This document shows positions 3,356 through 25,695 of a DNA stretch of 32,000 nucleotides, piece after piece. Each line of letters opens with the position of its first letter. Position 1 is the stretch's first letter. Origin of the DNA: Byssovorax sp. (GTDB lineage: Bacteria; Myxococcota_A; Polyangia; Polyangiales; Polyangiaceae); contig JANYGI010000126.1 in assembly GCA_025362495.1 (NCBI GenBank), forward strand, positions 1 through 32,000, read 5' to 3'. The translations under genes were made by a program, and so were the position numbers. The notes under the pieces are model-generated. The model saw nothing but the letters and a program-made list of their open reading frames with translations. It did no database searches and had not been told where the DNA came from.

Positions 3356-3450
3356 GCACGCTTTTGCAATATCAAGCGAGATCCGCTAGCCCCGCTGCAT
3401 TTGGCTTGTGACTCGCGGGATACTGGCTTGGGCCCCAAGCGCGGGAGCGG

Positions 3451-4060: not shown

Positions 4061-4083
4061 AACTCCACCTCCACAGCGTGCCA

Positions 4084-5298: not shown

Positions 5299-5452
5299 GG
5301 TTACACCTCGCGCACTCGGCGCGGATCTGAGCCTGGCCAAGATTCCAAACGTCGCACCGTGGACGCGAGTCAACGCACCTCGCGGGGCGGCGTTCGGATC
5401 TCGTGAGGGGTTGGGCCCTCTCTATTTACTTCCGGCGACGGGCGCCGTGCGA

Positions 5453-6766: not shown

Positions 6767-6887
6767 ATTTAGATCTTCCAGCGGGACGGGGCATTTTCCG
6801 AAGAAATCGACCGGCCGTGAAAATAGATCACGCGAGCGCCCGCGGCGGATCCGAGCGCGAGGGGCGGGCCGCTCACCGCGTCACCGG

Positions 6888-7105
6888 GCCGCGAGCCTAT
6901 CACGCGAGAACCGAGGAGCAGCTCGGGGCCGCGTCGTCGTCCCCGCGAGCCGAGGAGCAGCTCGGGGCCGTCGTCGTCGCGCGCCTGGCGCAGCTCCGGG
7001 CCGCGTCGTCGCTCGCCGCGATCGGGGAGCCGCTCGGGCGCGTCGTCGTCGCGCGCCGTGTGCCTGGCGCAGCTCGGGGGCGTCGTCGCTCGCCGCGAGC
7101 CGAGC
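6888..7105 (+). repeat. array B of the dispersed GC-rich tandem repeat (forward orientation)
   Basis: About six abutting units, e.g. CCGCGAGCCGAGGAGCAGCTCGGGGCCGTCGTCGTCGCG and CGCCTGGCGCAGCTCCGGGCCGCGTCGTCGCTCG. A tail with TCAAGCGAGATCCG at 7126-7139 matches the tail of array A. Confidence 0.85.
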
Positions 7106-7311
7106 AAAGAAGCCTTTCGGAGAGATCAAGCGAGATCCGTTCGCTTCGCTGCTTTCGGCTTGCGGCGTTGGGTTTGCGTGACTTGCGGCGCAAGCCGGGG
7201 ACGTCGCCCGCCTACAAGCCGCGCCATGGGGCGCCATGCGTTCGCGTCGGGTGCCGGACCAGGCCGCATTCGGGTGGTCTTCTCTCCCCGACGTGACGTA
7301 ACCTCGCCGGC

Positions 7312-8391
7312 ATGCTCGCCCGCGTCGCATTCCTGGGTGCTCTGCTCGGCGCCCTCGCCGGCTGCACGCTGGAGACTGTCGAGGGCTATTACACCTGCGC
7401 GGATCCCGAGAAGGGGCACCGCGGGCCGAATGGACAGCCGGATCCCTGTCACCATCAGGACGCGGTTGCGAACACCGGCACGCAGTGCGATGTAGGCGAA
7501 TTCGTGCATTGGCAGATCAAGTGGAAGGATCCGACGTTGCTCTGGTTCGGCCCCGCGGCTCAGGCGCCGGAGTGTCCGCGAGGACCGACGACTGTAGCGT
7601 ACGAGGGACAGACCGATCTCGTTGCGCCAGGCGCCTGCGAGGCGTGTACGTGCGAACCATCCACCGGCTCGTGCGCGCTGCCTTCTATCCTTACGACGAG
7701 CACGAGCACATGCGGCGATTTCGCCAGCGGATCGCCGACCTCATTCAACGCGCCGACTCCCTGGGATGGGAGCTGCGATAGCGCGATCCAAACTCCTGAC
7801 GGAGCCGCGCATTCGCTAACGATCGACCCGATCACGATAATCGAGAACGGGTGTTCGCCAGGGCCGCCCGTCGCCGCGAAGGTGGCCTCTTTGCACTGGG
7901 GCACGTTGGCGCGAGCGTGCGACGTCGATTTGCAGAGAGGCCCAGTCGATCGCTCGATCTGCTTCTCCGAAGATATTGTTTCTCCGGGCTTCGCGTTGTG
8001 CATCTTCCGTGAGGGTGAGCACGCCTGCCCCACCGATCCAGGCAACGTGTTTACGGAGCACCACGTTTTCTATAGTGGGGTTCAAGACGATCGCCAGTGC
8101 TCGGCGTGTACGTGCGGGCCCCCAACGAACAGCGCATGCACCGCGACCGTCGCGATTTACAAGGGCAATAATTTGACGTGCATCGATCCGGCGCTCGCGA
8201 CAATTCCCATCAGCTCGAAGAGCAGCACGTGTATCGACGTTCAGCTCCCCGGGCAAGCGCTCGGGAGCAAGAAGTCAGTGGGACCTACAACCTACCTCCA
8301 GGGCACGTGCCCGCCGATGGGCGGTGACGCGAGCGGGAGCGCGATACCGACGGAGCCCGACACGTTCTGCTGCCGCCCCAGCACATTTTGA
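7312..8391 (+). CDS. Cys-rich secreted lipoprotein with internal duplication
   Basis: MLARVAFLGALLGALAG|C lipobox. There are many Cys. The motif CxACTCxP occurs twice (CEACTCEP, CSACTCGP), suggesting two repeated modules. Confidence 0.8.
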   Translation: MLARVAFLGALLGALAGCTLETVEGYYTCADPEKGHRGPNGQPDPCHHQDAVANTGTQCDVGEFVHWQIKWKDPTLLWFGPAAQAPECPRGPTTVAYEGQTDLVAPGACEACTCEPSTGSCALPSILTTSTSTCGDFASGSPTSFNAPTPWDGSCDSAIQTPDGAAHSLTIDPITIIENGCSPGPPVAAKVASLHWGTLARACDVDLQRGPVDRSICFSEDIVSPGFALCIFREGEHACPTDPGNVFTEHHVFYSGVQDDRQCSACTCGPPTNSACTATVAIYKGNNLTCIDPALATIPISSKSSTCIDVQLPGQALGSKKSVGPTTYLQGTCPPMGGDASGSAIPTEPDTFCCRPSTF

Positions 8392-8398
8392 GGAAACC

Positions 8399-8770
8399 AT
8401 GCGACCCCTCGTTATCGGATTGGCTACATTCTCCGTGGCTTGCCTCCTTCTCGTCGCATGCAGTCAGGATTCTACGAGCGCCTCGACCGGCACCAGCGGC
8501 ACGGGCGGCGCGCCAAACTGCGATGGCATCGTCATCGTCAATGGCGACGACGCCGGGAACTCTTGCGACGTTTGTCTTCATAAAGAGTGCTGTGCCGAGG
8601 TCGCCGCCTGCGCCGACAAGTACTGCAAGGATTGCGTCAACTTCCTCTCGCCGGGCTGTACCGACAACTCACACGTCAACGCTCTGAATGAGTGCGTGGG
8701 TAGCCGCTGCGATTCTACGTGCAATCCCAAGTGGACTCCTTCTAGCAGCAGCACCACGAGCGGCTCATAA
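8399..8770 (+). CDS. small Cys-rich lipoprotein
   Basis: ATG at 8399 preceded by GAGGAA. MRPLVIGLATFSVACLLLVA|C lipobox, an S/T/G linker, then a Cys-rich domain (CDVCLHKECCAEVAACADKYCKDC). Confidence 0.75.
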   Translation: MRPLVIGLATFSVACLLLVACSQDSTSASTGTSGTGGAPNCDGIVIVNGDDAGNSCDVCLHKECCAEVAACADKYCKDCVNFLSPGCTDNSHVNALNECVGSRCDSTCNPKWTPSSSSTTSGS

Positions 8771-8794
8771 GGCTTCGCCAACCGGGCCCTTCGC

Positions 8795-9238
8795 TCATTG
8801 TGGCATCCAATTACCAGAAGGCCACACGAGGATATCGTCGAGCGTTTCTCCCGGATCCAGATCAGGCTTGTAGCTCCAATCGTGAATCTCAAAGGGCTGA
8901 GATGCGAGGAGCAGAGCGCGAGCCGTGTCGATAATTTCCGGGGTCAGATTGTTAGGGTCCCAAGCTGCTAGTAACGAGCGCATTCGCTCCGCGAGCTCTG
9001 AAACTTGGGACTCGTCGGCCGCGTGTGAAACGTAGCCTTGCTCCTTGGCTAGCTCGCGGCGCGACCGAGCGTAGGGCATGTAAGCATCACACAACCAGAG
9101 CAGGTGCTCACGGGAAGGCTGGCGCGCGAGCATGTGGAACAGATCGGGACTGGCGAGCACCAGCAGCCAATGGCTGAAAGGAATTGCATTGCCAATCTCG
9201 GAGAGACGCGGGTTCGTGGTGTCGTAAATCGTGGGCAC
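8795..9238 (-). CDS. hypothetical cytoplasmic protein (147 aa)
   Basis: GTG start at 9238, 8 nt after the stop of the upstream gene, with GGAGAG spanning the gap. AT-richer patch, no signal peptide, no recognised domain. Confidence 0.6.
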   Translation of the reverse strand: MPTIYDTTNPRLSEIGNAIPFSHWLLVLASPDLFHMLARQPSREHLLWLCDAYMPYARSRRELAKEQGYVSHAADESQVSELAERMRSLLAAWDPNNLTPEIIDTARALLLASQPFEIHDWSYKPDLDPGETLDDILVWPSGNWMPQ

Positions 9239-9246
9239 ATGCTCTC

Positions 9247-9921
9247 CTAATTAGCAAAACAATAGGGCTTACCCAAGAGCGGGAATTTGGTTTGCAAGAT
9301 GAATGCTCCTCCCGTCACGTCCGAGCCCTTCATACATCCATAAGCACACCAGCCCTTGATTACGAGATTTTGGAGATATTCGGGGCAATAGGGGCAACTG
9401 CCCTTCCCGCATTGCGTCACGAAGCACCTGCCGGGGATATCGGGGCACGTCGTCGTGAACGGGCAGTTGTTCGGAGGCTCTATGCACTCATTCTTGGGAT
9501 AGATTCCTTGTGAAAGGGTAGACACATCGACCGACTGAGCCCACGCGAGCGCCGCGTTGATGGCATCCGGTGCCGCAGAGTCAACGAGCTGCGAAGTGGT
9601 AGCTTCATCAAGAGTAGAGGGGTCCGCCATTTGAATCCCGACCAGATTATTCGCAGTCACTGCGGCAAAGGCGGCCGTATCCGTCACCCGTGTTACCTCG
9701 ATCGGGTCTGCATGTTGTAGCGCGTCGAGGTCCGCGAGTTCTTCCGGCGTCAACGTCGAGGTTGCCCCTCCTGCTCCGGTTCCTGCTCCTCCTGCTCCGC
9801 TGGTGGGATCTGCTGTCGTCTGTCCGCTCGTTTCCCCTCTCTGGAAATGGATCTCGCAGGCGGGCGCAATCAGCATTCCGAGAGCCGCACACAGAACGGC
9901 GGCACTTGATGACTTCTTCAT
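9247..9921 (-). CDS. secreted/lipoprotein with Cys-rich C-terminal domain
   Basis: AAGGGGAG RBS before the ATG at 9921. MKKSSSAAVLCAALGMLIAPA|C signal, a G/A/T-rich linker, and a C-terminal ~80 aa with about 12 Cys (CIEPPNNCPFTTTCPDIPGRCFVTQCGKGSCPYCPEY...). Confidence 0.75.
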   Translation of the reverse strand: MKKSSSAAVLCAALGMLIAPACEIHFQRGETSGQTTADPTSGAGGAGTGAGGATSTLTPEELADLDALQHADPIEVTRVTDTAAFAAVTANNLVGIQMADPSTLDEATTSQLVDSAAPDAINAALAWAQSVDVSTLSQGIYPKNECIEPPNNCPFTTTCPDIPGRCFVTQCGKGSCPYCPEYLQNLVIKGWCAYGCMKGSDVTGGAFILQTKFPLLGKPYCFAN

Positions 9922-9979
9922 GATTTCTCCCCTTTTTCTATCTACGCTGAAAATGTATAATCAGTAAACAGCTCGCCGA

Positions 9980-10981
9980 TCACAAAACGAAAGAGAGCCC
10001 GGTACCGATGCCTCCCGAAACAGGAGGAGCCGTCCATCCCGGGCCTTCGTCGATCGGAATTGTCACTCTCGTCAAAGTCCTGAGTAGCTCGCCGAAAAAA
10101 TGGAATCGGAGGTGAGGCGCGAAAGGCACCTCGACACCGAGGCGGCCCCCGGTCGCGGCATAGAGCTTGGCCCCCTCGTGCCCGGGGTTGGCGATGCCTT
10201 CGCCCTCGGTCCAAAGCCGTCCTATCTCGGCCACAAAGCAGCCGTATAGCTTCCATCGGTGAACGCACGGCACCGCGGTGCCCAAGAGTACGGACGTCAT
10301 CAGGCGAACCGCGTCCGGTTGCCCCGTCACCTGTCCAGCCGCCTGCGGATCCCAGCGAACACCCATCGCGAACGAAACCCCATCAATGGGGAGCGCGGTC
10401 AAGGGTATGTTGAATCCGACGTCGCCCAACAAGCCAACTTCGGCTCGCGGCGCGGCGCCGAATACGAGCGTCGGGCCAAGTCGTATCACAAGCGAGATTG
10501 GTTCAGGCGGAGGGGGTGGTTCCGGCGGAGGCATGGAGGGCGGGAGCGGTGGCGGACTGGAAGGCGGGGCCGGAATGACGGGCGAGGGGAAAAACTCAAC
10601 CTCGATATCCGCGCCCATAACCTCCATGAGTGTGCGGCAGTCGTTAGCGCGAACGGTGCTTGCTTTCGACCATCCCGGTGCGCCCGCGTCGTCGTAGAAC
10701 TGGAGCGCGCCGATGAGCTGGGGCCCTTTCCGCGTCACCGTCGCGACCAGCCGCGCGCGCGCGTCGGGCGCGAACGGGTCGAGCCCGGCGCGGCGCGCGA
10801 CTTCGAGACGTAAGCCGCGCTCGTCCGGGCACGCTTCGGTACCCGGGCCGCGCTTGTACTCCAGCCGAGCCGTAACGTGATCCGAACCGGCGCCCGACGC
10901 GAGAGCAGACGCCGAAACGAGGAGAAGCACGATCGCGAGAGCGAGGGCCGTTCGCTGGATCACCGGGCGCGACGGTATCAC
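9980..10981 (-). CDS. secreted protein with Pro-rich linker and beta-rich C-terminal domain (possible outer-membrane protein)
   Basis: GTG start. Signal-like ALALAIVLLLVSASALASG, a PPSSPPPLPPSMPPPEPPPPPEP linker, and a C-terminal half with alternating hydrophobic pattern. The function is inferred only. Confidence 0.6.
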   Translation of the reverse strand: MIPSRPVIQRTALALAIVLLLVSASALASGAGSDHVTARLEYKRGPGTEACPDERGLRLEVARRAGLDPFAPDARARLVATVTRKGPQLIGALQFYDDAGAPGWSKASTVRANDCRTLMEVMGADIEVEFFPSPVIPAPPSSPPPLPPSMPPPEPPPPPEPISLVIRLGPTLVFGAAPRAEVGLLGDVGFNIPLTALPIDGVSFAMGVRWDPQAAGQVTGQPDAVRLMTSVLLGTAVPCVHRWKLYGCFVAEIGRLWTEGEGIANPGHEGAKLYAATGGRLGVEVPFAPHLRFHFFGELLRTLTRVTIPIDEGPGWTAPPVSGGIGTGLSFVL

Positions 10982-11028
10982 GACAGGATCCCGCGCGAGA
11001 ACGCCGCGCCTTGCGATTCCGCAAGATC

Positions 11029-11058
11029 GAGCGTGCGATTCCGTGGAATCGCACGCTC
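11029..11058. repeat. perfect 14-bp-stem hairpin
   Basis: GAGCGTGCGATTCC-gt-GGAATCGCACGCTC. A smaller hairpin CTTGCG-attc-CGCAAG precedes it. It lies just upstream (on the - strand) of the gene starting at 10981. Confidence 0.8.
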
Positions 11059-11077
11059 GCGGGCGCGGAAACGCCGT

Positions 11078-11135
11078 CCGGGGCGTCGTCGCTCGCCGCG
11101 ACGAGACGCAGCTCGGGCGCGTCGTCGTGTGCGTG
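11078..11135 (+). repeat. array C (short) of the dispersed GC-rich repeat
   Basis: GGGGCGTCGTCGCTCGCCGCGACGAGACGCAGCTCGGGCGCGTCGTCGT, about 1.5 units of the same family. Confidence 0.7.
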
Positions 11136-11274
11136 CACCGCGCGCGCCGGGACCATTCGTGACGTGACGAATGGTGCCGCTCAACCTTGCGCCGTCGCGC
11201 GAGCTGCGCGCGGGAGCACCGATCTCACGCCTCGCGAGAAGGCAAGCACGGACAGCGATTGGGCCGTCTCACGC

Positions 11275-11316
11275 CTCACGGGCGCCGTTCTCACGCGTGA
11301 GAGCGGCGCCCGTGAG
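11275..11316. repeat. 42-bp near-perfect palindrome
   Basis: CTCACGGGCGCCGTTCTCACG|CGTGAGAGCGGCGCCCGTGAG with one mismatch. Extra CTCACG/CGTGAG copies flank it (about 11224, 11268, 11319). Confidence 0.8.
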
Positions 11317-11541
11317 AGCGTGAGCCCGACGACGGGCGGCCACGGCGCGAAGATTGACGGGGCCGCGCGTGCTCGCGGCCCCTCGGGCGGAGGCGCGGCG
11401 CGTGTCGCGGGGGTCGTCCCCAATTCGAGATGACGCCCCGCGGTTACGGTCGGACAGTCGCCAGGCGATCGAGCTTGCGCATTCCGGGGAGGTGTAAACC
11501 AGACTGGACTACACCTCGCCGGCATGCGCGCGGCCCCCAAA

Positions 11542-11567
11542 TACCGAAGCGGTGCGCCGCTTCGGTA
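11542..11567. repeat. perfect 11-bp-stem hairpin
   Basis: TACCGAAGCGG-tgcg-CCGCTTCGGTA in a non-coding tract. Confidence 0.8.
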
Positions 11568-11724
11568 GCATGTCTCGCGCGTGGAAAATATGCGATGAAA
11601 CGGCTGATATTCGGCCGTTCGGGGCGCGTCGCGGGGAGAAGTATTCTAGCTCGGGATACTTGGGCGCCAACGCGGCGGATCCGACGCCGCCGGGGGCGCT
11701 CGCCCTCGAACCAGACGCACGGGC

Positions 11725-11756
11725 GAAAAGACGTACCGCGCCCGGTACGTCTTTTC
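11725..11756. terminator. perfect 14-bp-stem hairpin with A/T runs in both arms (possible bidirectional terminator)
   Basis: GAAAAGACGTACCG-cgcc-CGGTACGTCTTTTC. The stem can extend by 2 more bp. No adjacent CDS is convincingly terminated, so its role is uncertain. Confidence 0.4.
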
Positions 11757-11883
11757 GCAGTTGGGAGGTCCGCGACCATCGAAGGACGATCGAAAAATCG
11801 GGAATCTGACAGTTTCCTGACTCGAAAACGGCGCGGTTTCGCTTCGCCCTCGACGACGGTTTCGCGTGGGTGCGCTTCGAACT

Positions 11884-12225
11884 TGGCTCCGAGCTGCTCC
11901 TCGGCTCGCGCGTGCGACGACGCGCCCGAGCTGAGGCAAGCTCGCGGCGAACGACGACGCGGCCCCGAGCTGCTCCTCGGCTCGCGGCGAGCGACGCCCG
12001 AAAAACTGCGCCAGGCGCGCGGTGAGCGACGTGGCCCCGAGCTGCTCCTCCGTTTGCGCGAGCGATGACGCTCTCGAGCTGCGGCCAGCTCGCGGCGAGC
12101 GTCGACGCCCCGAGCTACTCCTCGGCTCGCGGCGAGTTGGCCGCGTGCCGGGCTCCATTATTTTCGTGAAAAATGCGCCCCCGAGCTGCGGCAGGCTCGC
12201 GGCGGGCGACACGACGCGCCTTCCG
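11884..12225 (-). repeat. array D of the dispersed GC-rich repeat (inverted orientation)
   Basis: Units such as GGCCCCGAGCTGCTCCTCGGCTCGCGGCGAGCGACG are the exact reverse complement of the array A/B consensus. There are about 8 units. It lies immediately left of the cassette patch. Confidence 0.85.
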
Positions 12226-12433
12226 AACGGTGATTCAGGCAGACCTACCCGAAAACTTTGTAGAGGCGAGGAGCGGAGGAGCGATGCGGCGTCGCCTGGA
12301 GATTTCGGCGAAGTTTGTGCTTGCGGATCTGCGGCGATTGCCGGAGCATCCGGTGGGCTTGGGTCGGATACCTGGTCTGAATCGAGATCGGCAAATCTGT
12401 CGTTGGGCAGATACCGATCGTAGGGTGAATTCG

Positions 12434-13318
12434 ATGACATTCGAGAATTTTGACTTTTCGCTACTAGACGACCCCGAATTCAAGGAGGACTCGGTACGCG
12501 AGGAGATCATCGTGCCCATCCTCCGGCGGCTCGGCTACGCTGCATCTGGGCCAGCACGAATTGTTCGCAGCAAAGCCCTGATCCATCCGCTCGTCTACAT
12601 TGGCTCGAGACCCCATCCGGTTAACGTCGTCCCAGATTATCTTCTGATCGTCGGTGATGCACACAAGTGGATCTTGGATGCCAAGTCTCCCAAGGAATCC
12701 ATTTTATCGGGCAAGAATCCGGAGCAGGCCTTTAGCTATGCGATTCATCCCGAGGTTAGGGCATTTCGATATGCCCTCTGCAATGGGCGGCAACTTGCCG
12801 TCTTCGATGTTCAGAAGATCAACCCGCTGTTGGTGCTCGACGTGCAGCAGTTCGACGAAAAAATCGCCGCCGTAGAGCGCCTCCTGAGCCCGCTTGCATT
12901 CACGAAGCCGCACATTTTTGACTTCAAGCCAGATCTCGGGCTCTATCTTTTGAAAGCCGGGGCGCGCGTCGATTCCAGGATGCACTTTGTGGGCGTAGGT
13001 ATTCCTATGGTCGCCAAGGTTGAGGATGGTCGATACACTACTTTCATGACCGTAGGCGGCGAAGGCGACTTTTACGGCGTTTCCTTCGACTTTGATGACG
13101 ACAAGCTCCACCAACTGCTTGCCGCACTTGACGAGCAAAATCGGCTTAAGGCCTCTGAAGGATTGAAGCGTCAACCCTACAAGGTCTTCTTCGATATTCC
13201 CTCCGAGGTGTGCATCGAAGCTACGTTCGGCCAAGTTGTGCACGAGAATGAAGACGAAAGCTACTGTCCATTTGAAGCCGTTACATTCTCAAGGATCGAC
13301 GACAAGAGCACACCGTGA
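12434..13318 (+). CDS. PD-(D/E)xK nuclease, type I restriction HsdR N-terminal-like domain protein
   Basis: ATG at 12434, 26 nt after GTTGGGC. Motifs in order: EDSVREEIIVPILRRLGY, VPDYLL, WILDAKSP (D...D-x-K) and EQAFSYA (QxxxY), as in HSDR_N-type nucleases. The C-terminal ~150 aa were not recognised. Confidence 0.75.
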   Translation: MTFENFDFSLLDDPEFKEDSVREEIIVPILRRLGYAASGPARIVRSKALIHPLVYIGSRPHPVNVVPDYLLIVGDAHKWILDAKSPKESILSGKNPEQAFSYAIHPEVRAFRYALCNGRQLAVFDVQKINPLLVLDVQQFDEKIAAVERLLSPLAFTKPHIFDFKPDLGLYLLKAGARVDSRMHFVGVGIPMVAKVEDGRYTTFMTVGGEGDFYGVSFDFDDDKLHQLLAALDEQNRLKASEGLKRQPYKVFFDIPSEVCIEATFGQVVHENEDESYCPFEAVTFSRIDDKSTP

Positions 13319-13333
13319 AGCCAACGCAGGAAC

Positions 13334-13421
13334 TGCCCAACAAGCCGTTGCTGCCGACGGGGCGTCGAGCCTCGCTACGCTCGGCGCGGCGCCCCGCGGC
13401 AGAACGGTCGATCGTTGGGCA
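13334..13421 (+). other. attC-like recombination site 1
   Basis: It starts TGCCCAAC (RYYYAAC = GCCCAAC, 13335-13341), 16 nt after the stop. It ends GTTGGGCA (GTTRRRY, 13414-13420). The arms form an imperfect dyad: CTGCCCAAC..CGTTGCTGCCG.CGGGGCG versus the reverse complement CTGCCCAAC..CGTTCTGCCGCGGGGCG, with unpaired bases. Central hairpin GCGTCGAGC...GCTCGGCGC. Confidence 0.6.
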
Positions 13422-13457
13422 GGCGGGCCTCAACGAATTCGCGAGAAGGTGACAAAC

Positions 13458-14252
13458 ATGACTCGGCTTGAAAAGACTATCTCTGATGTGATCCCCAGGC
13501 GACTCAGAGCCTACGGCTGGGGTAAGCATCTTGAGGGATCGAAGTATGCGATCTACGACGTGCGCGGCCTGCATCTCGCGGCTGGGAACCTGCGATACAT
13601 TCTCAAGGACGAATCTGCGCGCTTATACTACCGAGGCCAGGCCGAGAGTTACCCCACCGGCATCGTTCCAAGTCTATACCGGGGCGCGCAGACGCTCGAA
13701 GAACGCATAGAACGCGACGAAAAAGTCGAGCGTGCAATCCGAACGATTAAGAGCAAAGCTAACTGGGACCCAAAGGGAACCGCAGGCCAAAGCGAGGCGC
13801 TCGCGCAGCACTACGGCATGCGAACGCGCTGGCTCGACGTTGTCGACCATCTACAGAGCGCAGCGTGGTTCGCGTATGACAGCGACAAGGCGCACGCCGA
13901 TGACGGCGTCGGGTACATCTATCTGATCGCGATATCGCGGGAGACTGCGCACGAGGTGGTCGACCTTCGTGAGCGTGGTTCAAACTGGATTCGCCCTCAC
14001 ATTCAACAAGGCTTCGGTATCGCGACTACAGCTCTTGCGCCGAACGTGAACGACTGTGTTGTTGCAACATTCGTGGTGCCACGAGTGCTCCTTCGCGCCG
14101 CTTCGGGATATGATTTCTACACGAGAGACACGTTTTTTCCACCTTCAGGGCAAGACCAGGGTAGGCACTACTGGATTCAGGCTGCCGACGCGCTTAGGTC
14201 TGAAGTATCAGAGGCAGACTTCAAGCTTCTTATCTGGAGCGACGGGCGGTGA
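13458..14252 (+). CDS. FRG domain-containing protein
   Basis: ATG at 13458 with GAGAAGGTGA upstream, 38 nt after the attC-1 core. LYYRGQAESYPTGIVPSLYRG and ALAQHYGMRTRWLDVVDHLQSAAWFA match the FRG-domain signature as I remember it ([FY]RGQ ... QHYG.pTR.LDw). Confidence 0.7.
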   Translation: MTRLEKTISDVIPRRLRAYGWGKHLEGSKYAIYDVRGLHLAAGNLRYILKDESARLYYRGQAESYPTGIVPSLYRGAQTLEERIERDEKVERAIRTIKSKANWDPKGTAGQSEALAQHYGMRTRWLDVVDHLQSAAWFAYDSDKAHADDGVGYIYLIAISRETAHEVVDLRERGSNWIRPHIQQGFGIATTALAPNVNDCVVATFVVPRVLLRAASGYDFYTRDTFFPPSGQDQGRHYWIQAADALRSEVSEADFKLLIWSDGR

Positions 14253-14284
14253 AACGTCATCGGCAGATCCGGATACCGCAACGC

Positions 14285-14372
14285 TGCCCAACAAGCCGCT
14301 GCATCGGACAGCGCGCCGAGCCTCGGAGCACTCGGCGCGTCCCTCCATGGGTAAGCGGCGCAGCGTTGGGTC
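14285..14372 (+). other. attC-like recombination site 2
   Basis: GCCCAAC at 14286-14292 (33 nt after the stop) ... GTTGGGT at 14365-14371. It has the same 88-nt length as site 1. It aligns to site 1 without gaps, with about two-thirds of positions identical by eye; the first 15 nt, CTGCCCAACAAGCCG, are identical. Central hairpin GCGCCGAG...CTCGGCGC. Arm symmetry is weaker than in site 1. Confidence 0.55.
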
Positions 14373-14536
14373 GACGGTCCCGGGTGGCAGTCCACGCTGA
14401 CGGTCCCGTGCACACAGTATCGGAGGCTGCCCGCGCTTCTGCAAGACAACTTGTGTACATGCGTCATATAACCAGGTCGTCCAACGATGCGACGCTAACT
14501 GCTTTTACCCCTCGCAATTGACTGACGGAGCAGTAG

Positions 14537-15088
14537 ATGCAAGCGACTAACATCGACGTTCGTCAGCCTGGCTCGGAGCCTGCTCCGACAACGGCGGACC
14601 AATTGACTGCCGAGCGCACGCAAGCGGTGACACCGAGTGGGCTCGCAGTAGGTTCGCCTAGTCTACCAGTATTCGCGCCCCGTCCGCCCCAGGAAGAACT
14701 CTATTGGAGGCAGTATGCGCTATTTGCGGATCTCCTAAAGAACTATATTGATTTGGTGATCAAGTTTAATACGTACTACTACACCGCCATCGCAGGGATC
14801 GTTGGGTTATTCGTAGCGATCAGTCCAGAAAAACGATTGTTGGCACGTTATTTTCTGCCGGTTCCCATACTCCTTAGTTTCATGTTTGCGGTGGTGTCTT
14901 TTTATGCATCGAAATCCACGAGAGCACTGCGATACGAAAATGAGAGGATAGGTCGCGCGCTCAGTCTCTCGGTAGTCCCGGACGTGTCCGTGTTGGCGTT
15001 CATGCTTTTGATATCTGGTGTTCTATTTGCATCCGTTGCTGTGGCGATTGTTGTTGGACTGGTGCTTTCACTGACCGCGAGGATCTAA
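14537..15088 (+). CDS. small integral membrane protein (183 aa, 3-4 TM)
   Basis: About 55-aa soluble N-terminus, then hydrophobic helices YYYTAIAGIVGLFVAI, YFLPVPILLSFMFAVVSFYA and VSVLAFMLLISGVLFASVAVAIVVGLVLSL. AT-richer codon usage. Confidence 0.7.
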   Translation: MQATNIDVRQPGSEPAPTTADQLTAERTQAVTPSGLAVGSPSLPVFAPRPPQEELYWRQYALFADLLKNYIDLVIKFNTYYYTAIAGIVGLFVAISPEKRLLARYFLPVPILLSFMFAVVSFYASKSTRALRYENERIGRALSLSVVPDVSVLAFMLLISGVLFASVAVAIVVGLVLSLTARI

Positions 15089-15546
15089 TGGGCCTTTTTC
15101 TGCCTCCTGTTTCGCTCGATCCAGAGTTCGTCGACAAACTGGCCGAGCATTCTGCGCGCACGACCATTGACCGCCTGCAGAGTCAAATCGACGGCGCGCT
15201 CAGCACCCAACTGCGCATGGCGCGCCGCATGGCGTTCGTACAAATAGTGTTGGGTAGCGGGGTGGCAATCGCGCTAGCTCTCGGCGGAATGCTTTTTGAT
15301 CGATTTCAACTTCCACGCGCCGGTGAGTTCCTGCGAACCGCAGGCGCTTTCCTTTTGGCGAGCTCAATCGCAGGAGGCATCACTGTATGGGCAATGGCGA
15401 TCTCTGCAAAACTTCAGGATCTTGTCAGTCGTGACGGCACTGCTGACCAAACGCGCGCGCCCTTGAGGGCTACATTTGACGGCGGTGCCGAGTCTCCCGC
15501 CAGCGCCGCCCAACCTGGCAAAGCAGCCGACGAATCCCAGGGCTAG
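15088..15546 (+). CDS. small membrane protein (152 aa, 2 TM)
   Basis: The start overlaps the upstream stop (TAATG at 15086-15090). Helices MAFVQIVLGSGVAIALALGGMLF and AGAFLLASSIAGGITVWAMAI. Confidence 0.7.
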   Translation: MGLFLPPVSLDPEFVDKLAEHSARTTIDRLQSQIDGALSTQLRMARRMAFVQIVLGSGVAIALALGGMLFDRFQLPRAGEFLRTAGAFLLASSIAGGITVWAMAISAKLQDLVSRDGTADQTRAPLRATFDGGAESPASAAQPGKAADESQG

Positions 15547-15573
15547 GCTGCGCCCAGCCCTGGGATTCGCAGC
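15547..15573 (+). terminator. stem-loop immediately after the stop codon (weak terminator candidate)
   Basis: GCTGCG-CCCA-gccc-TGGG-att-CGCAGC, followed by TGATTG. There is no clean T-tract. Confidence 0.3.
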
Positions 15574-15671
15574 TGATTGCCAACGTTATGTCGATTAGCT
15601 AGTAAGCGCAATAGTGTCTTTAAGTGTCGATTCGGGGTCGCAGTCTGGACGGGCCCGCTGTTCCGTTGAAC

Positions 15672-15820
15672 TCGGGCGGCGCCTACCGCGAGCAGCTCGC
15701 GACGCGCGACGACGCCTCGCGAGCTGCGCCACGCTCGCTGCAAGCGACGCGCCGCCGAGCTACGACAAGCTCGCCGCGAGCGACGACGCGGCCCCGAGCT
15801 GCGCCTCGGTTCACTCTATG
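15672..15820 (-). repeat. array E of the dispersed GC-rich repeat (inverted orientation)
   Basis: For example GACGACGCGGCCCCGAGCTGCGCCTCGG and CGCGAGCAGCTCGCGACGCGCGACGACG. It has the same orientation as array D and lies immediately right of the cassette patch. Confidence 0.75.
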
Positions 15821-17495
15821 CGCGCCGCTTGCCGCGCACGGGGATCGGCGTCGCTTCCTGGATCTCCACGCGGATCGGCGCCGCGTTGAGAAGTAGTGAC
15901 GCAACGGCGTCGCTCGTCTCTCCCGCCTCGCTTGGGGCTTCCTCCTCGCTCCCCTCATTCAGCGAAGGGAGCGCCCCACGCTCGAACGCAGCCGCGAGCG
16001 CGGACACGTCGCGCCAAACGATGCGCGGCCCGTCCTCCGGCGCGATCGTGATCCCCTCCACGAGCGCGATCACCGCCTCGCGGCGCTTCGGGACACTGAG
16101 CCCTTCCCACGCCCCGGCCACCAGGGTGACGAACGCGAGCGCCCCGCGCCGGCTCGCTACGGTGTCGCCCGTCGCGTCCGCAGATTGCTCCGCTTCGGTC
16201 GCGTCAAGATCGGACAGCTCCCGATCCAGCTTTTCGACTTCCTTCCCCACGTCGTCCACGCTCATCAGCCCACGAGAAACCAGGGAAACGACCCGCTCGC
16301 GAGCTTCCTTGATCTTCGCCCGCTTGTCCCCGTGGTCTGGAGCGATCCGCCGCGGAGAGGGCGGCGGACGCATCAGGGAGGCTCCTAGAGACTTGAGGTG
16401 TTTAAGCGTCGCTCGTTCCACGATCTTGTCGGTTTCCGCCTGGCGCAGATAAGGCGCCTCGGAGCATCGGATCTTGTCTTCACCAGGGGTGAGGCGCTTG
16501 CGGCAGACGTAATATCCCGCGTGCTTGAGGCGAGAGGTTTTCGACGTCGCCGTAGCGCAACAGGTGGTTCCGCAGATCGAGCAGCGGGCGAGCCCACGAA
16601 TCAACCAACCTTGCGTGCTCGAGCCCATGTGAACGTTCGCGCCATGATTGCGCCGACTGACAAGCGCCCTTTGCGCAAGGGACCATTGATCGAAGGTCAC
16701 GATCGGCTCGTGCGCGTCGACCCATTGCGCCGGAAGTTGCGCCGTTGTTCGCCGATTGCCCGGCCGTACAGGGGTGAGGGCCAGTTGCCCGGTGTAGATG
16801 CGATTTTTCAGCGCAATCAAGACCCACGATCGGCCGAACGCCGCGACGCCCTTGTAGCGCGATCGTAGATAAGCGCTGATCTCCAGAACGCTTTCCCCGT
16901 TGATGCAACGCTCGAACATGTCGCGCACGGCGGCAGCACGCACCGGATCGATCTCCAGGCGGCGCGGCTTGTCGGAGTTGTCTCGACCCTTCACGCGGAG
17001 GTACCCGAGCGGAGGAAGCCCCTCGACAAACTTCCCCTGCCCGCGGAGCCGCTTCCGATTGCCCTCGGTTCGCTCCTTGATCCGCGCGCGCTCCATCTGC
17101 GCGATCGACGCCCACATCGCCATCTGCGTCTCCCCCTCGGGGGTGCTCGCGTCGAAGCGTTCGGCGAGCGAGAGGAAGCGCGCGCCACGTCGAAGGATCT
17201 CGCGCACGGCGGAGAACGTGAAGACGATGTCGCGCGAGAAGCGATCCAGCTTCGAGACGATCACGAGGTCGCCCGGCCGCACCATCTTCAGCAGGCGCGC
17301 GATCTCGGTTCGCTTCTCCTGCGACTCGGCGCTCGCCGACTCGACCTCGATGAAGTCGATCGGAACAGGGAGCCGCGAGATCGCGGCGTAGCGTTGCAGC
17401 TCGTCGAGCTGACTGTCGAGCGACGTCCCCGCGCCGCCCTGCTCCGACGTCGAAACTCGTCGGTACCCGAGCACTCTTCGCGCTGTCTCTTGCAT
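15816..17495 (-). CDS. large serine recombinase (site-specific integrase)
   Basis: N-terminal resolvase catalytic domain (GYRRVSTSEQ, SKLDRFSRD), a recombinase domain, a Cys-rich zinc ribbon (CSICGTTC...YYVCRKR...IRC) and a coiled-coil C-terminus. 559 aa. Confidence 0.9.
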   Translation of the reverse strand: MQETARRVLGYRRVSTSEQGGAGTSLDSQLDELQRYAAISRLPVPIDFIEVESASAESQEKRTEIARLLKMVRPGDLVIVSKLDRFSRDIVFTFSAVREILRRGARFLSLAERFDASTPEGETQMAMWASIAQMERARIKERTEGNRKRLRGQGKFVEGLPPLGYLRVKGRDNSDKPRRLEIDPVRAAAVRDMFERCINGESVLEISAYLRSRYKGVAAFGRSWVLIALKNRIYTGQLALTPVRPGNRRTTAQLPAQWVDAHEPIVTFDQWSLAQRALVSRRNHGANVHMGSSTQGWLIRGLARCSICGTTCCATATSKTSRLKHAGYYVCRKRLTPGEDKIRCSEAPYLRQAETDKIVERATLKHLKSLGASLMRPPPSPRRIAPDHGDKRAKIKEARERVVSLVSRGLMSVDDVGKEVEKLDRELSDLDATEAEQSADATGDTVASRRGALAFVTLVAGAWEGLSVPKRREAVIALVEGITIAPEDGPRIVWRDVSALAAAFERGALPSLNEGSEEEAPSEAGETSDAVASLLLNAAPIRVEIQEATPIPVRGKRRA

Positions 17496-17590
17496 GGCTA
17501 CTCAATCCTAAAGAATGAATGATAACACGAGGAAATTCGAGGGGTTAGGCTCGCACCGATCTCTCCGTAAACCCACGTTTTTAATGAGAT

Positions 17591-18478
17591 TTACGCGCAC
17601 CGACCGGCGACCACGTATCTATCAAATAGCGCGCGCTTGTCGAAGCGATACCCGCGGAGGAAGATCTCGATCTTCGACAGCCACCGTCGAGGAGCCGAGA
17701 GGACGAACGGGTTCTCGCTCTGCTCCTTGATGGCCCGGATGTCGAAGCCGCGAATGGCACCGTCCGCGCCGACGCGCACGGTGAGGTTCAGCGTCGCCAG
17801 GTGCTCGTCGTAGCTCAGCAGATCGGCCATCGAGCGGTGAGGCTCCGTGGCGCGGACGGAGGCGCCGAAGGCCTGGAGCCGGGTGAGGCCCGACGTGGCG
17901 CCGGCGAACGAGGTGCTGGCCTGATCGAAGAGGTCTTTGACGAGCCCGAGCACGTCGAGCTGGCGCCTCGTCGCGTCGAATTTCTTTCCGACGGTCGCGC
18001 CCTCGAGCGCGCCGCGGAGCCGGCAAAGCGTGGTGTAGAACTTCTCGAACTGGCGCCGGAACAGCGGCACGCCCGCGAGCTCGGCGAGGATCCCCTGGCG
18101 AAACTCGGTGACGCGAGGGTCGATGGGAGGATGAGAGAGCACGCGGAGCAAGAACCCCCGATTCAGGACCGCTTCGTGGCCGCCGATCCGCACGCGAAAG
18201 CAGCGCGTGACGAGATCATCGAGGAAGAGATCCTGCGCGAAGCTCCGCGGATCCCAGGTCGATGGCGCGATCGGCGTCCGGGTGAGGGCCTGGGCGAACA
18301 GGCCCCCCGAGACCCCGCTGGCGAAGGCGAACGCGAGGCCCTGGACGAGCTCGTCGAGATCGGCGCGAGGCAGCGGCTCGGGGTGCAACAGATCGACGGG
18401 GAGCGCCGCCCCCGAGGGGGCATGCGCGTCAACGGCGGAACTTTCCTGGCTGCCTGCGGTCTTGCTCGGGTCCATCAT
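17591..18478 (-). CDS. MutS-family-like protein (core/lever region only), apparently 3'-truncated
   Basis: ATG at 18478. LLRVLSHPPIDPRVTEFRQGILAEL resembles the P-x-x-D-x3-I-x2-RQ-x2-I-x-EL start of MutS domain III. No Walker A/ATPase segment follows. The last ~12 codons (cta ttt gat aga tac ...) switch abruptly to AT-rich usage. Confidence 0.45.
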   Translation of the reverse strand: MMDPSKTAGSQESSAVDAHAPSGAALPVDLLHPEPLPRADLDELVQGLAFAFASGVSGGLFAQALTRTPIAPSTWDPRSFAQDLFLDDLVTRCFRVRIGGHEAVLNRGFLLRVLSHPPIDPRVTEFRQGILAELAGVPLFRRQFEKFYTTLCRLRGALEGATVGKKFDATRRQLDVLGLVKDLFDQASTSFAGATSGLTRLQAFGASVRATEPHRSMADLLSYDEHLATLNLTVRVGADGAIRGFDIRAIKEQSENPFVLSAPRRWLSKIEIFLRGYRFDKRALFDRYVVAGRCA

Positions 18479-18671
18479 CGTCACATAGCGCGGTAACCTC
18501 CGACGTGGCGAAGGTTCCCCGCGACCGCGTAATACCGTGTGAGTCGGAAAGTTGGCTCCAGGTTGACACGTCGGGGAGCGTGAGGGATCCAACAGGCACT
18601 GATCCGGTGCCCTCCAGATCGCCGACCGGCGCGGGTTGACCCCGCCGCGTGGACGTCGCACGACCCTGATC

Positions 18672-19478
18672 ATGGCCATCGAGCTGAAGACCCCCCGCGA
18701 TCTCGAGGCGATGCGCGTCGTCGGCAGGATGGCGGCCGAGACGCTCTCGCTCGTCGGCGAGCGCCTCCGCGCCGACATGACGACCGACGACATCGACGCC
18801 ATCGTCCGCGCCGACACGCTCGCTCGCGGCGCGACCTGCTCCACGCTCGGCTATCACGGGTTCACCCGGAGCTGCTGCACCTCGATCAACGAGGTCATCT
18901 GTCATGGCATCCCCGGGCCGCGCGTCGTCGCCACGGGGGACATCATCAACGTCGATATCACCTCGTTCTACGGGGGATTTCACGGCGATACCTCGGCCAC
19001 GTTCCTGGTCGGCCCGGTCTCGGCCGAGGCGCGCCACATCACCGAGGTCGCCCGGCATTGCCTCGCGCTCGGCATCGCCCAGGTGCGCGAGGACGCGCGC
19101 ATCGGCGATATCGGCGCTGCGATCCAGCAGTACGCCGAGGCCCAGGGCTGCAGCGTCGTTCGCGACATCGTCGGCCACGGCATCGGCCGCAAGTTCCACA
19201 CCGAGCCCGATGTCCCCCACGTCGGGCGAAAGGGGCACGGCGTCCGCCTCAAGGCAGGAATGGTGTTCACGATCGAGCCGATGGTGAACCTCGGAGGCCA
19301 CCAGTATCGCGAGCTCGACGACGGGTGGACGATCGTCACCAAGGATGGCTCTCTCTCCGCGCAGTTCGAGCACACCCTCGTCGTCACGAAGGAGGGGTGC
19401 GAGATCTTGACGCCGCGCTCGCGCCCCCTCGTGAACAGCGAGGTCTTCGGCGTTGACGTTGCGCTCGGCGCCGGCTGA
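18672..19478 (+). CDS. map: type I methionine aminopeptidase
   Basis: MAIELKTPRDLEAMR start. Metal ligand contexts INVDIT, FHGDTS, GHGIGR, FTIEP and QFEHT are all present in order. Confidence 0.92.
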   Translation: MAIELKTPRDLEAMRVVGRMAAETLSLVGERLRADMTTDDIDAIVRADTLARGATCSTLGYHGFTRSCCTSINEVICHGIPGPRVVATGDIINVDITSFYGGFHGDTSATFLVGPVSAEARHITEVARHCLALGIAQVREDARIGDIGAAIQQYAEAQGCSVVRDIVGHGIGRKFHTEPDVPHVGRKGHGVRLKAGMVFTIEPMVNLGGHQYRELDDGWTIVTKDGSLSAQFEHTLVVTKEGCEILTPRSRPLVNSEVFGVDVALGAG

Positions 19479-19527
19479 TCCTTTTCGCCGACGAATCAAG
19501 ATTCAATCAGCGCGGCCGAAGGGGTAG

Positions 19528-22500
19528 GTGAGGGAGGCTCCGAGATCCCTCGCCTTCATGTTGATTCCTTTCGCCGAGCTCCTCGGTCGATCGTGCTTCT
19601 CGTTCCTCGAAGGAGCGTCGCACCCGAACGAGATGGTCGAGAAAGCCCACGAGCTCGGGCTCGGCGCGATCGCGATCGCCGATCGCGATGGCCTCTACGG
19701 GAGCGTGCGCGCTCATTCGGCAGGCAAATCGCAGGGGCAGCACGTGATCACCGGCGCCGAGCTCACCCTCGAGGACGACGTCGGGCAGCTCGCGCACCCG
19801 GCGTCGGTGGTGCTGCTCGCGCGCGATCTCGCCGGCTACGGGAACCTCTGCGCCCTGCTCACGCGCGCGCACGCCACACATGAAAAAGGCACGGCGGGGC
19901 TCACCGTCGAGAGCGTCGCGGCCATGTCGACGGGGCTGACGGCGATCGTCCCGCTGGAGGCTCGACGCGATCCCGACGCGCCCCTCGACGCGGTGCTGGG
20001 CCCGCTCTCCGAGGCCTTTGGCGAGCGCCTCTTTGCCGCCACCTGGCGTCACCGCGACGGCCGCGACGTCCCGCGCACGGCGGCGGCCGTCGCCGCGGAG
20101 GAGCGGTATGGACTCGGCATCATCGCCACGAGCCGGCCGCTCTACCACGAGCCCGCGCGCAAGCCGCTCGCCGACGTCCTCCGCTGCATCAAGCTCAAAA
20201 CCACGCTCGATCAGGCCGGGACGCGGATCTCCGGCAACGCCGAGGCTCGCCTCCGCTCCGGCGCGGAGATGCTCGCGCTCTTCCGCGATCACCCCGCGTG
20301 GGTTCATGGCACCGTGGCGATCGCCGAGGAGCACCCCTTCACGCTCAAAGAGCTCAGGTATCATTTCCCGAGCGACTCGCTCTGTCAGCCGGGCGAGACG
20401 CCCGACGCCGCGCTCCGCCGCGTGGTCGAGATTGGCTGTCTCGACCGCTACCCCGAGGGCACCCCTCTGGCGGTGCGGGCCCAGATCGAGAAAGAGCTCG
20501 CGATCATCTCCCACATCGGCGTCGCCGCGTACTTCCTCAGCGTGCAGCAGATCGTGGAGATCGCCCGGCAGAAGCGCATCCTCTGCCAGGGGCGCGGCAG
20601 CGCCGCCAACAGCGCTGTCTGCTTTGTCCTCGGCGTCACCGCGGTCGATCCCGCCGTGAACAAGCTGCTCTTCGAGCGCTTCCTCTCGACCGAGCGCGCC
20701 GAGCCGCCCGACATCGACGTCGACTTCGAGCACGAGCGCCGGGAAGAGGTGATCCAGGCCATCTACAACCAGTATGGCCGCGATCGCGCGGCGATGGTCT
20801 CGGAGATCATCAGCTATCGTGGCAAGAGCGCCCTCCGCGAGGTCGGCAAGGCCTTCGGCCTCGCCATCGATCAGGTCGATCGCCTGAGCGGCCTCGTCAT
20901 TCACATGGATCCAGCCCACATGTCGGCCGAGCGGATCGCCGAGACTGGCCTCGATCCGAGCGATCCGCGGCTGATCCGCGTCCTCGAGGTGGCCGCGCAG
21001 CTCGACGGCTTTCCCCGCCACCTGTCCATTCACGTCGGAGGGTTCGTCCTCTCTTCGCAGCCCCTCACGCTGGTGGCGCCGATCGAGCCGGCGCGGATGG
21101 AGGGGCGCACGGTGATCCCCTGGGACAAGGACGATCTCGACGATCTCGGGTTCTTCAAGCTCGACGTCCTCGGCCTCGGCATGCTCACCGCCATTCGCAA
21201 GACGCAGGAGCTGATTCACACCGGGAGCGCCCCGTTCGATCCGATAGGCGCGCTCGCGGCGATCCCGAAGGAGGATCCGCTCATCTACGACGCGATCTGC
21301 CGGGCCGACACCGTCGGCGTGTTCCAGATCGAGAGTCGAGCGCAGATGTCGATGCTGCCCCGCCTGCGCCCGCGGGAGTTCTACGATCTGGTGATCGAGG
21401 TGGCGATCGTTCGCCCCGGCCCCATTCAAGGGGGCATGGTCCATCCCTACCTCCGCCGGCGCAATGGAGAGGAAGCCAGCGACCCTCCCCATGAATGCCT
21501 GAGAGAGATCCTTCATCGCACGCGCGGAGTCCCGCTCTTCCAGGAGCAGGTGATGCAGATTGCCATGGTCGGCGCCGGCTACACCGCGGGCGAGGCCGAT
21601 CAGCTCCGCCGCGACATGGGCGCCTGGAAGAAGAACGGGAGGCTCCAGCGCCACTATCCCATGCTGATGGCCGGCTTTCAGCGGCGCGGGATCTCCGAGG
21701 CGTTCGCCGAGCAGCTCTACAAGCAGATCCAGGGCTTCGGCGAGTACGGCTTCCCGGAGTCGCACGCGATGAGCTTCGCGCTCCTCGTGTACGTGTCGGT
21801 CTGGCTCAAGGTGCATCACCCCGCGGCCTTCGTCTGCTCGCTCCTCAACTCGCAGCCGATGGGCTTTTACAGCGCCTCGTCGCTGGTGCAAGACGCCCAG
21901 CGCCACGGGGTCGAGGTGCGCCCGGTCTCGATCACCCGCAGCGACTGGGATTGCACGCTGGAGCCTTTGCCGCGCGAGCCCGGCGACGACGGCGAGCTCG
22001 CGGCGCTCCGCCTCGGGATCCGGCAGATCCGCGGCGCGGGAGAGGCCATGGCCCGGGCCGTGATGAGCGCCCGGGCCGAAGCACCCTTTGCGTCGCTCGA
22101 CGATCTGATCCGCCGCGCTCACCTGAAGAAGAACGAGATCGAGGCTCTGGCCGAGTCGGGGGCGCTCGGGCCGCTGGTGCCGGAGCGCCGCGACGCGCTC
22201 TGGCGGGCCCGCGCGCCGCGCGAAGGAGGCCTGTTCGAGGGGATGTCGATCGAGCCCGACGAGGACGTGGGGTTACCGCCGATGCGCCCGCTCACGCAGC
22301 TCGCGCTCGACTACGGGCGCGTCGGCCTGTCCGTTCACGATCACCCGATGCGCCACGCCCGCGACTCGCTGCGGGCCCGGGGCGTGCGCGTCGCCGAGGA
22401 CCTGAAGAGGCTCCCCGACGGGGCGCTGATCGAGGTCGCCGGCCTGGTGATCGGCCGTCAACGACCGGGTACGGCGAGCGGCGTCACCTTCATCACCCTG

Positions 22501-22707: not shown

Positions 22708-22709
22708 GC

Positions 22710-22775
22710 GGTTTCTCGACGATTTGTCGACCGTTTCTCGACCATTTATCGACCATTTCTTGACGGGTTCTTCGC
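22710..22775 (+). repeat. six tandem 11-bp direct repeats (helically phased)
   Basis: GGTTTCTCGAC GATTTGTCGAC CGTTTCTCGAC CATTTATCGAC CATTTCTTGAC GGGTTCTTCGC. Period is exactly 11 bp. The array starts 3 nt after the dnaE2 stop and ends 31 nt before the fic ATG. Confidence 0.85.
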
Positions 22776-23949: not shown

Positions 23950-23987
23950 GATCGCCCTCGATCGGGCCGTGATCCGGCTCGCGTGCA

Positions 23988-24016
23988 TTGACTCATCTCC
24001 TGAAAAATCATAAAGA
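23988..24016 (+). promoter_or_regulatory. candidate promoter upstream of the monooxygenase-like gene
   Basis: TTGACT (23988-23993), a 17-nt spacer, then TAAAGA (24011-24016). The -10 abuts the first ATG, so the true start may be a downstream Met (24025 or 24052). Confidence 0.3.
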
Positions 24017-25683: not shown

Positions 25684-25695
25684 CGCTCGCGCGGT

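Follow-up and report, generated by a model that had tools for sequence, protein, structure and literature searches.

The window, by which we mean the whole 32,000-nt stretch of Byssovorax sp. DNA analyzed here, contains between positions 12402 and 15591 an array of three integron-type gene cassettes on the plus strand. Two of the cassettes end in attC recombination sites, the third in a probable degraded one. The cassettes, their four open reading frames (ORFs) and their recombination sites are arranged as follows:

12402-12410 (+): 5' boundary of the array, core GTTGGGCAG; crossover would fall between G12402 and T12403
12403-13415 (+): cassette 1, 1013 bp, 54.8% G+C, containing ORF1
12434-13318 (+): ORF1, 294 residues, HsdR-N-terminal-like PD-(D/E)xK nuclease family
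13335-13420 (+): attC1, intact; R'' GCCCAAC, L'' TTGCTGCCGAC, G+C-rich central hairpin, L' GCGGCAGAAC, R' GTTGGGC
13416-14366 (+): cassette 2, 951 bp, containing ORF2
13458-14252 (+): ORF2, 264 residues; Pfam FRG (E 3.6e-12) and PADLOC candidate defense family PDC-S15 (E 1.6e-11)
14286-14371 (+): attC2, partly decayed; R boxes and spacer helix intact, L box weakened, R' GTTGGGT
14367-15586 (+): cassette 3, 1220 bp, containing ORF3 and ORF4
14537-15088 (+): ORF3, weak match to the 8xMP membrane-protein family
15088-15546 (+): ORF4, matching no family; hydrophobic stretch read by eye
15508-15591 (+): attC3, probable degraded attC; R'' GCCCAAC, L'' AAGCAGCCGAC, long hairpin, L' GCAGCTGATT, R' GTTATGT

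attC sites and cassette boundaries

The bottom strand of an attC site folds to a hairpin in which R''/R' and L''/L' are paired and two bases are bulged. The integron integrase IntI, a tyrosine recombinase, recognizes this folded shape and cuts between the G and TT of the GTTRRRY core. Both 13335-13420 and 14286-14371 are attC sites on the plus strand. Each measures 86 nt from R'' to R' with complementary RYYYAAC and GTTRRRY cores, and the two align without gaps at 71% identity, sharing an initial 15-mer, CTGCCCAACAAGCCG, found in exact form nowhere else in the window. A sequence-only reading of this DNA had described two 88-nt elements with GCCCAAC and GTTGGGC or GTTGGGT at their ends, a gapless alignment and an identical 15-nt start; all of this stands, the extra length being one flanking base on each side. 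The distances it gave are correct to within 1 nt: R'' begins 16 nt (attC1) and 33 nt (attC2) after the preceding stop codon, the next ATG follows the core at 12402, attC1 and attC2 by 25, 37 and 165 nt, respectively, and the cores are spaced by 1012 and 951 nt.

The sites were scored with two covariance models, R1 and R2. R1 was trained on the attC of aadA1 together with 14 attC sites of environmental origin, all failing to match the window-derived pattern used to search for relatives (see below); the aadA1 sequence used is present at 100% identity in 1962 plasmids. The structure of R1 pairs R'' with R' and L'' with L', the latter with two bulged columns, and contains a spacer helix. In its alignment 95.5% of cells are paired, compared with 30-36% in slid controls, and 14 of 20 pairs have changes on both sides. 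The stricter model, R2, has as its whole training set 8 attC sites, in a model-guided alignment, from a single complete integron of a gammaproteobacterium, Peristeroidobacter agariperforans (locus L017). A MAFFT alignment of 21 attC sites from non-myxobacteria, intended for a third model, was dropped because of its ragged L box.

Searched with filters off, the window gives its three best R1 matches at attC1, attC2 and attC3, all on the plus strand. attC1 scores 59.4 bits (E 1.2e-12) on that strand and 10.4 bits on the minus strand, attC2 scores 28 bits (E 5e-5), and attC3, the third-best match, 16.5 bits (E 0.031). With R2, attC1 reaches 45.3 bits (E 1.9e-10) and attC2 20 bits (E 0.002). A covariance-model search was the check that the sequence-only reading had put first, and attC1 and attC2 pass it with both models, significantly and strand-specifically. 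R1 finds nothing in 22 loci that matched the search pattern by chance, and has no match with E under 0.5 among 61 kb of syntenic sequence of the relatives. Scanning the window against Rfam gave no family at its gathering score and no attC match.

The bottom strand of attC1 folds with a z-score of -5.3 and displays a bulged T and C, the kind of extrahelical bases that the first reading had recommended looking for. The corresponding z-scores are -2.45 for attC2 and -6.96 for attC3, the latter with its bulged T in the canonical position. The fine structure of attC1 is GCCCAAC-AAGCCG-TTGCTGCCGAC...GCGGCAGAAC-GGTCGATC-GTTGGGC and that of the aadA1 site is GTCTAAC-AATTCG-TTCAAGCCGAC...GCGGCTTAAC-TCAAGC-GTTAGAT, with the bulged positions coinciding at alignment columns 16 and 23 (bottom strand T/C vs T/G). 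In the folded bottom strands of both attC1 and attC3, a bulged T followed by C (or CT) occupies the T/G columns of aadA1. The L'' box of attC3 carries the conserved GCCGAC, and the site overlaps the stop codon of ORF4, the last co-oriented ORF, where the low-G+C patch ends. attC1 looks fully competent for recombination; attC2 and attC3 are progressively decayed. No further copies of the element are present in the window in either orientation.

A 53-nt attC-like sequence at 10424-10476 (+), GCCCAACAAGCC...GTCGGGC, was rejected as a chance match or an unprovable relic. It has E ~0.07 with both models, GTCGGGC in the place of R' and a fold z-score of -1.05, and lies inside a probable minus-strand ORF 1.9 kb upstream of the array.

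At its left end the array begins with a core only. The 9-mer GTTGGGCAG has four exact occurrences in the window, at 12402 and 13414 on the plus strand and at 13333 and 14284 as the reverse complement, and because all four are cassette boundaries, the core GTTGGGC at 12402, already picked out by the sequence-only reading, is a real boundary and not a chance match. The degenerate left arm that had been proposed for it at 12316-12332 is not borne out: upstream of 12402 neither R1 nor R2 finds a match, and the fold is no better than that of shuffled sequences (z = -1.2). An imperfect palindrome, GATCGG-CAA-ATCTG-TCGTTGGG-CAGAT-A-CCGATC, occupies 12386-12419, with the left boundary of the array at its center, and spans the proposed crossover point.

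At every attC, R'' agrees with the beginning of its own cassette no less closely than with the R' now located downstream of it (9 of 9 positions vs 9 of 9 for attC1, 9/9 vs 7/9 for attC2 and 7/9 vs 5/9 for attC3), which supports exchange at G|TT. The array consists of three cassettes, 12403-13415, 13416-14366 and 14367-15586. The earlier proposal of an integron-type array is upheld by the models, with a count of three cassettes in place of two plus a decayed site. A cassette unit would comprise one or two promoterless ORFs and then attC; a promoter scan, limited to sigma-70-like promoters, found none upstream of ORF1.

Cassette genes and the carrier island

ORF1 belongs to a family of ~290-residue proteins, named 'HsdR N-terminal domain-containing' by some sources, for which 1316 homologues were found. 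In an alignment of 56 members P67-D68 and A83-K84 are invariant and D82 is nearly so, which constitutes a PD-(D/E)xK nuclease signature. One homologue, with 50% identity, comes from Vibrio sp. SCSIO 43132; attC sites of ~122-126 nt flank it, and it lies downstream of an integron integrase scoring 448 bits against TIGR02249. The integron is complete, and the ORF1 family therefore travels as integron cassettes elsewhere. Around the closest ORF1 homologues (L051-L053) R1 detects no attC; the one clear case of a cassette is the Vibrio homologue. In cassette 3, the stop codon of ORF3 overlaps the start of ORF4 (ATCTAATGG). A sequence search of the PDB with ORF1 and ORF2 gave nothing significant.

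With a PD-(D/E)xK nuclease and an FRG/PDC-S15 protein among them, the cassette genes look defense-related, as judged from their family matches. Integron cassettes have recently been reported to stock anti-phage genes, and the defense-like genes found here fit those reports. The presence of one cassette family in both this array and a Vibrio chromosomal integron shows cassette exchange between phyla.

The array does not lie in ordinary chromosomal DNA. The features around it are the following:

1414-2421 and 2418-2876 (-): PD-T4-10 pair; PADLOC PD-T4-10_B (E 1e-31) and PD-T4-10_A (E 2e-29)
3093-3350, 6886-7104 and 11054-11140 (-): arrays of a 37-nt tandem repeat
11885-12215 (+): 37-nt tandem repeat array, left flank of the low-G+C patch
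15688-15812 (+): 37-nt tandem repeat array, right flank, between the cassette array and the 3' end of the recombinase gene
15816-17495 (-): large serine recombinase at the right end of the island, 559 residues; Pfam Resolvase, Recombinase and Zn_ribbon_recom, PHROG integrase family phrog_95 (E 4e-86)
17606-18478 (-): truncated MutS_V-family gene, corresponding to residues 1-291 of a 566-residue protein of relative L066 at 92% identity

The best named matches of the DnaE2 encoded in the window are from Byssovorax (90%) and from Minicystis and Sorangium (~70%), which places the window in the Polyangiaceae and shows that the myxobacterial origin guessed from the sequence was right. From 17.6 kb onward the DNA is core genome with a third-codon-position G+C of ~0.87, and the left 17.6 kb differs. 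The G+C content of the cassettes, 55-58.5% vs 68.7% in the core genome to the right, substantiates the AT-richer patch remarked on earlier.

For comparison with relatives we used the dnaE2 neighborhoods of three genomes (L066, L071 and L070), whose DnaE2 proteins are 97%, 90% and 84% identical to that of the window. Identity to L066 is 94.7% over 17639-22750 and 91.5% over 23808-32000, and nothing left of 17639 aligns, making the island/core junction at 17638/17639 a sharp homology breakpoint. L066 and L071 have a MutS_V-domain gene encoding 566-568 residues upstream of the methionine aminopeptidase gene. None of the island genes, attC sites or 37-nt repeats occurs in the syntenic DNA of the three relatives. 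Positions 1-17638 are an inserted, low-G+C, strain-specific island of at least 17.6 kb that interrupts the MutS_V gene. The sequence-only reading had held that a locus invariant among relatives would speak against a cassette array; this one is missing from all three.

The recombinase gene starts 143 nt from the island/core junction; its NCBIfam matches all score well short of the family cutoffs. A terminal recombinase gene, a sharp junction within a host gene and absence from relatives mark the segment as a carrier island, and the array is cargo of this serine-recombinase-bounded defense island, which also carries the PD-T4-10 defense system. Because the array lies inside an island that has its own recombinase, the unit that moved into the genome was most likely the serine-recombinase island rather than single cassettes. 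The first reading had placed the array in a myxobacterial-style chromosome; the chromosome is as described, but the array is not a stand-alone feature of it. That reading had overlooked attC3, the serine recombinase at 15816-17495, the 37-nt repeat arrays and the 17.6-kb island.

The 37-nt repeat is G+C-rich, with the consensus GGCCCCGAGCTGCTCCTCGGCTCGCGGCGAGCGACGC and a period that is not a multiple of three. Its arrays stand between the island's low-G+C gene modules, and those on either side of the cassettes enclose them as direct repeats. The unit has no fold signal and no match in viral contigs. Among metagenomes a single true related array was found, on contig L061, where it adjoins a homologue of the gene at 7312-8391.

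Further genes of the window deserve mention. The island protein encoded at 5453-6766 (-), 437 residues long, has a sigma-70 region 2 match (E 4e-6) as its only match, and an adjoining ORF of 429 residues matches no family. In the core genome, a Fic/DOC-family gene for 380 residues (22807-23949, +) separates dnaE2 from the core gene that follows; L066, the 97% relative, keeps a 50-residue remnant of it (residues 329-378) at its positions 13224-13373, a second point at which the gene content of the two genomes differs.

Integrase, related integrons and origin of the array

Searches of the whole 32-kb window by tblastn with IntI1 (from plasmid R100) and five other integron integrases gave nothing better than E 0.056, and none of the large ORFs of the window has a tyrosine-recombinase Pfam match. 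The statement of the sequence-only reading that no intI is present in the window is therefore correct. An attC-site cluster that has no integron integrase (CALIN) was defined for IntegronFinder as two or more attC sites on one strand, separated by less than 4 kb, with no integron integrase nearby (Cury et al. 2016, PMC4889954), a clustering distance of 10 kb also being used in that work. The window has three plus-strand sites, 951 and 1220 nt apart, with no intI or intI remnant, and so falls under this definition. The intI, adjacent attI and upstream Pc promoter of a complete integron are not found. In the published survey 83% of CALINs have fewer than six sites (PMC4889954), and 2961 CALINs have been counted in complete RefSeq genomes (10.1101/2022.09.11.507474). 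Taken together, 12402-15591 is very probably a three-cassette array of integron type with no integrase beside it, i.e., a CALIN, carried in a serine-recombinase island.

Several points weigh against this assignment. R1 and R2 were built for this analysis with a shortened calibration, and their E-values are rough. Five of the R1 training sites belong to a Polyangiales 91-nt attC family whose spacer, AACAAGCCG, is common with the window sites and may inflate R1 scores, a problem from which R2 is free. In attC2 the L box pairs poorly and the minimum-energy fold leaves the R boxes unpaired. The R' of attC3, GTTATGT, departs from the GTTRRRY consensus, and with R2 the site is not significant (12.4 bits, E 0.26). 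R1 detects no attC around the homologues of ORF2 (L062-L065). The integrase search was confined to the window, reaching 12.4 kb from the array on the upstream side and 16.4 kb on the downstream side. Finally, the island runs on past position 1 of the window, so that array and recombinase need not belong to one element.

Relatives of the attC sites were sought by matching a window-derived pattern, TGCCCAACAAGCCG followed by a gap and CGTTGGG, to one genome per species. This gave 46 loci, about half of them chance matches and the remainder with obvious arrays. On these loci R1 finds 89 sites in 24 loci, all on one strand within each locus. The sites nearest to those of the window are a lone site in Polyangium jinanense (L045), the first 27 nt of which equal those of attC1, and sites of Nannocystaceae type (L043). 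IntI homologues adjoin arrays in four loci (L003, L017, L028 and L041), L017 having 14 attC sites and intI. L041 and L028 each encode a full-length integrase, 47-48% identical to IntI1, and the homologues in L017 and L003 are cut by the ends of the loci. Against TIGR02249 (cutoff 265 bits), for which only these two of the four were scored, L041 reaches 404 bits and L028 359 bits; both pass. L041 and L003 come from metagenome-assembled genomes (MAGs) of Polyangiales type.

Many of the arrays are built from a homogeneous 91-nt attC family (GCCCAACAAGCCGATGGTGCCGACCGC...GCGGCGGCACATCGGCCAGCCGTTGGGC), seen in L003, L004, L007, L012, L014, L025, L031, L034, L035, L041 and L042. The hosts are Polyangiales, Myxococcales and other myxobacterial-type MAGs, in which the sites form co-oriented arrays of up to six or more per 8 kb. 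Such arrays occur on several contigs of one genome in these MAGs, and adjoin integron integrases in L003 and L041. Close to intI in L041 (~2170-2290) two direct repeats of GTTCGGGGGCTAGGCCG are followed by the core GATGTTGGGCAGCC. In its layout this region looks like an attI with integrase-binding direct repeats.

With no IntI encoded at the locus, the array is unable to move its own cassettes. Their excision as circles, or their capture by another integron, would take place only with an IntI supplied from elsewhere in the genome or by an incoming element. By analogy with established integron biology, the cassettes could be mobilized in trans in this way.

The array may have formed either as the remnant of an integron or by insertion at a non-att site. 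We suggest tentatively, without calling it probable, that it is a split-off or decayed part of a complete integron whose intI-attI once lay upstream of 12402 and was lost, or lies elsewhere and acts in trans. CALINs have been proposed to originate, among other ways, from loss of intI and from rearrangement (PMC4889954), and complete integrons are present in related Polyangiales MAGs. The quality of the attC sites falls along the array (59, 28 and 16.5 bits), as expected if it were unmaintained, and the core GATGTTGGGCAGCC of the attI-like region of L041 includes the same GTTGGGCAG as the boundary at 12402. However, no intI fragment is detectable on either side of the array (12.4 kb upstream, 16.4 kb downstream), an absence that does not discriminate, since 95% of CALINs in the published survey likewise have no intI pseudogene nearby (PMC4889954). 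A further difficulty is that the 187 nt upstream of 12402 resemble neither the intI-proximal regions of L003 and L041 nor the other sequences compared; comparison of the array flanks with the attI regions of related integrons found no similarity.

A route that we consider unlikely, though it accounts for the bare left junction, is that a trans-acting IntI placed a circle of cassettes, perhaps of all three, into a non-att site (attG, or secondary site) of the island. Small CALINs without nearby transposable elements have been proposed to arise by attG-type insertion, for which a GWT motif was reported (Loot et al., 10.1101/2022.09.11.507474). The empty target reconstructed from the flanks, ...CTGTCG|TTATGT..., contains GWT, but three such bases are expected almost anywhere. 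In keeping with this route, neither an attC left arm nor a recognizable attI is found upstream of 12402, and in a three-cassette circle the R'' of attC3 would pair with the start of cassette 1 at 8 of 9 positions. Yet ordinary insertion at attI followed by loss of the left part gives the same junction, and no allele with an empty site was found. A more elaborate version, in which IntI in trans put a three-cassette circle at a bare G|TT inside the defense island and the 37-nt repeats mark preferred sites of module acquisition, strikes us as distinctly improbable; if attG insertion were the true route, the locus would combine two nested levels of mobility.

That the 86-nt elements are generic intergenic palindromes, such as repetitive extragenic palindromic (REP) or miniature inverted-repeat transposable element (MITE)-like repeats, or terminators after ORFs, would agree with G+C-rich hairpins just past stop codons and with only two or three copies in the window, but this is hardly credible and essentially refuted: there is no T-run and a terminator scan finds nothing at the sites, the strand asymmetry is strong (59.4 vs 10.4 bits), the elements end exactly in RYYYAAC/GTTRRRY with bulges as in aadA1, and relatives occur only in co-oriented arrays, four of them beside integron-integrase homologues. 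Repeats found in both orientations and not linked to ORF 3' ends are what the sequence-only reading had named as a refutation; the three copies in the window are all on the plus strand and all at ORF 3' ends, with none elsewhere in it, and the relatives in 24 loci are likewise co-oriented.

Comparison with known systems

The array is genuine but ordinary: CALINs are common, and current understanding is unchanged by this one. To our knowledge, integrons are little described in Myxococcota, and the locus adds a well-documented case of integron cassettes outside an integron in this phylum. Its use lies in annotation and as a possible test case for CALIN origin, with added interest from the nesting in a serine-recombinase defense island and from the defense-like cargo.

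As regards the carrier and not the array, the island resembles other serine-recombinase islands that interrupt host genes, such as SCCmec with its Ccr recombinases and the fdxN element with XisF, in having a three-domain recombinase near the junction and in being absent from relatives. The window shows one end only of the island.

The 91-nt attC family of Polyangiales and Myxococcales comes from the same phylum as the window sites and resembles them in its identical R''-spacer, GCCCAACAAGCCG, its R' of GTTGGGC(AG), the positions of the bulges and the co-oriented arrays. The arrays of this family differ in being long and homogeneous, two of them (L003 and L041) adjoining intI, and the L boxes and central regions of the family are unlike those of the window sites.

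In the attC of aadA1, from class 1 integrons (R100/Tn21), the boxes follow the same order, R''-spacer-L''...L'-spacer-R', and the GCCGAC in L'', GCGGC..AAC in L' and the bulge columns are common to the window sites. The aadA1 site is shorter, at 60 nt vs 84-86 nt, whereas the central hairpin of the window sites is longer and G+C-rich. Its cores are GTCTAAC/GTTAGAT in place of GCCCAAC/GTTGGGC, and its second bottom-strand bulge is a G where the window site has a C. Unlike class 1 integrons, the array has no intI1, attI1 or Pc.

Cassettes at attG sites and single attC sites lacking integron integrases (SALINs; 10.1101/2022.09.11.507474) share with the array a position outside an integron platform, a bare G|TT left junction and a GWT in the target, here a reconstructed one. 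They consist of one cassette, in contrast to the three of the window, which may or may not have formed by this route.

The closest counterpart is the published CALIN (PMC4889954). The window array departs from it in that its attC sites were detected with home-built models rather than those of IntegronFinder, in its location inside a large-serine-recombinase island and in the off-consensus R', GTTATGT, of its last attC. What it has in common with CALINs is a small array of cassettes of unknown or non-resistance function.

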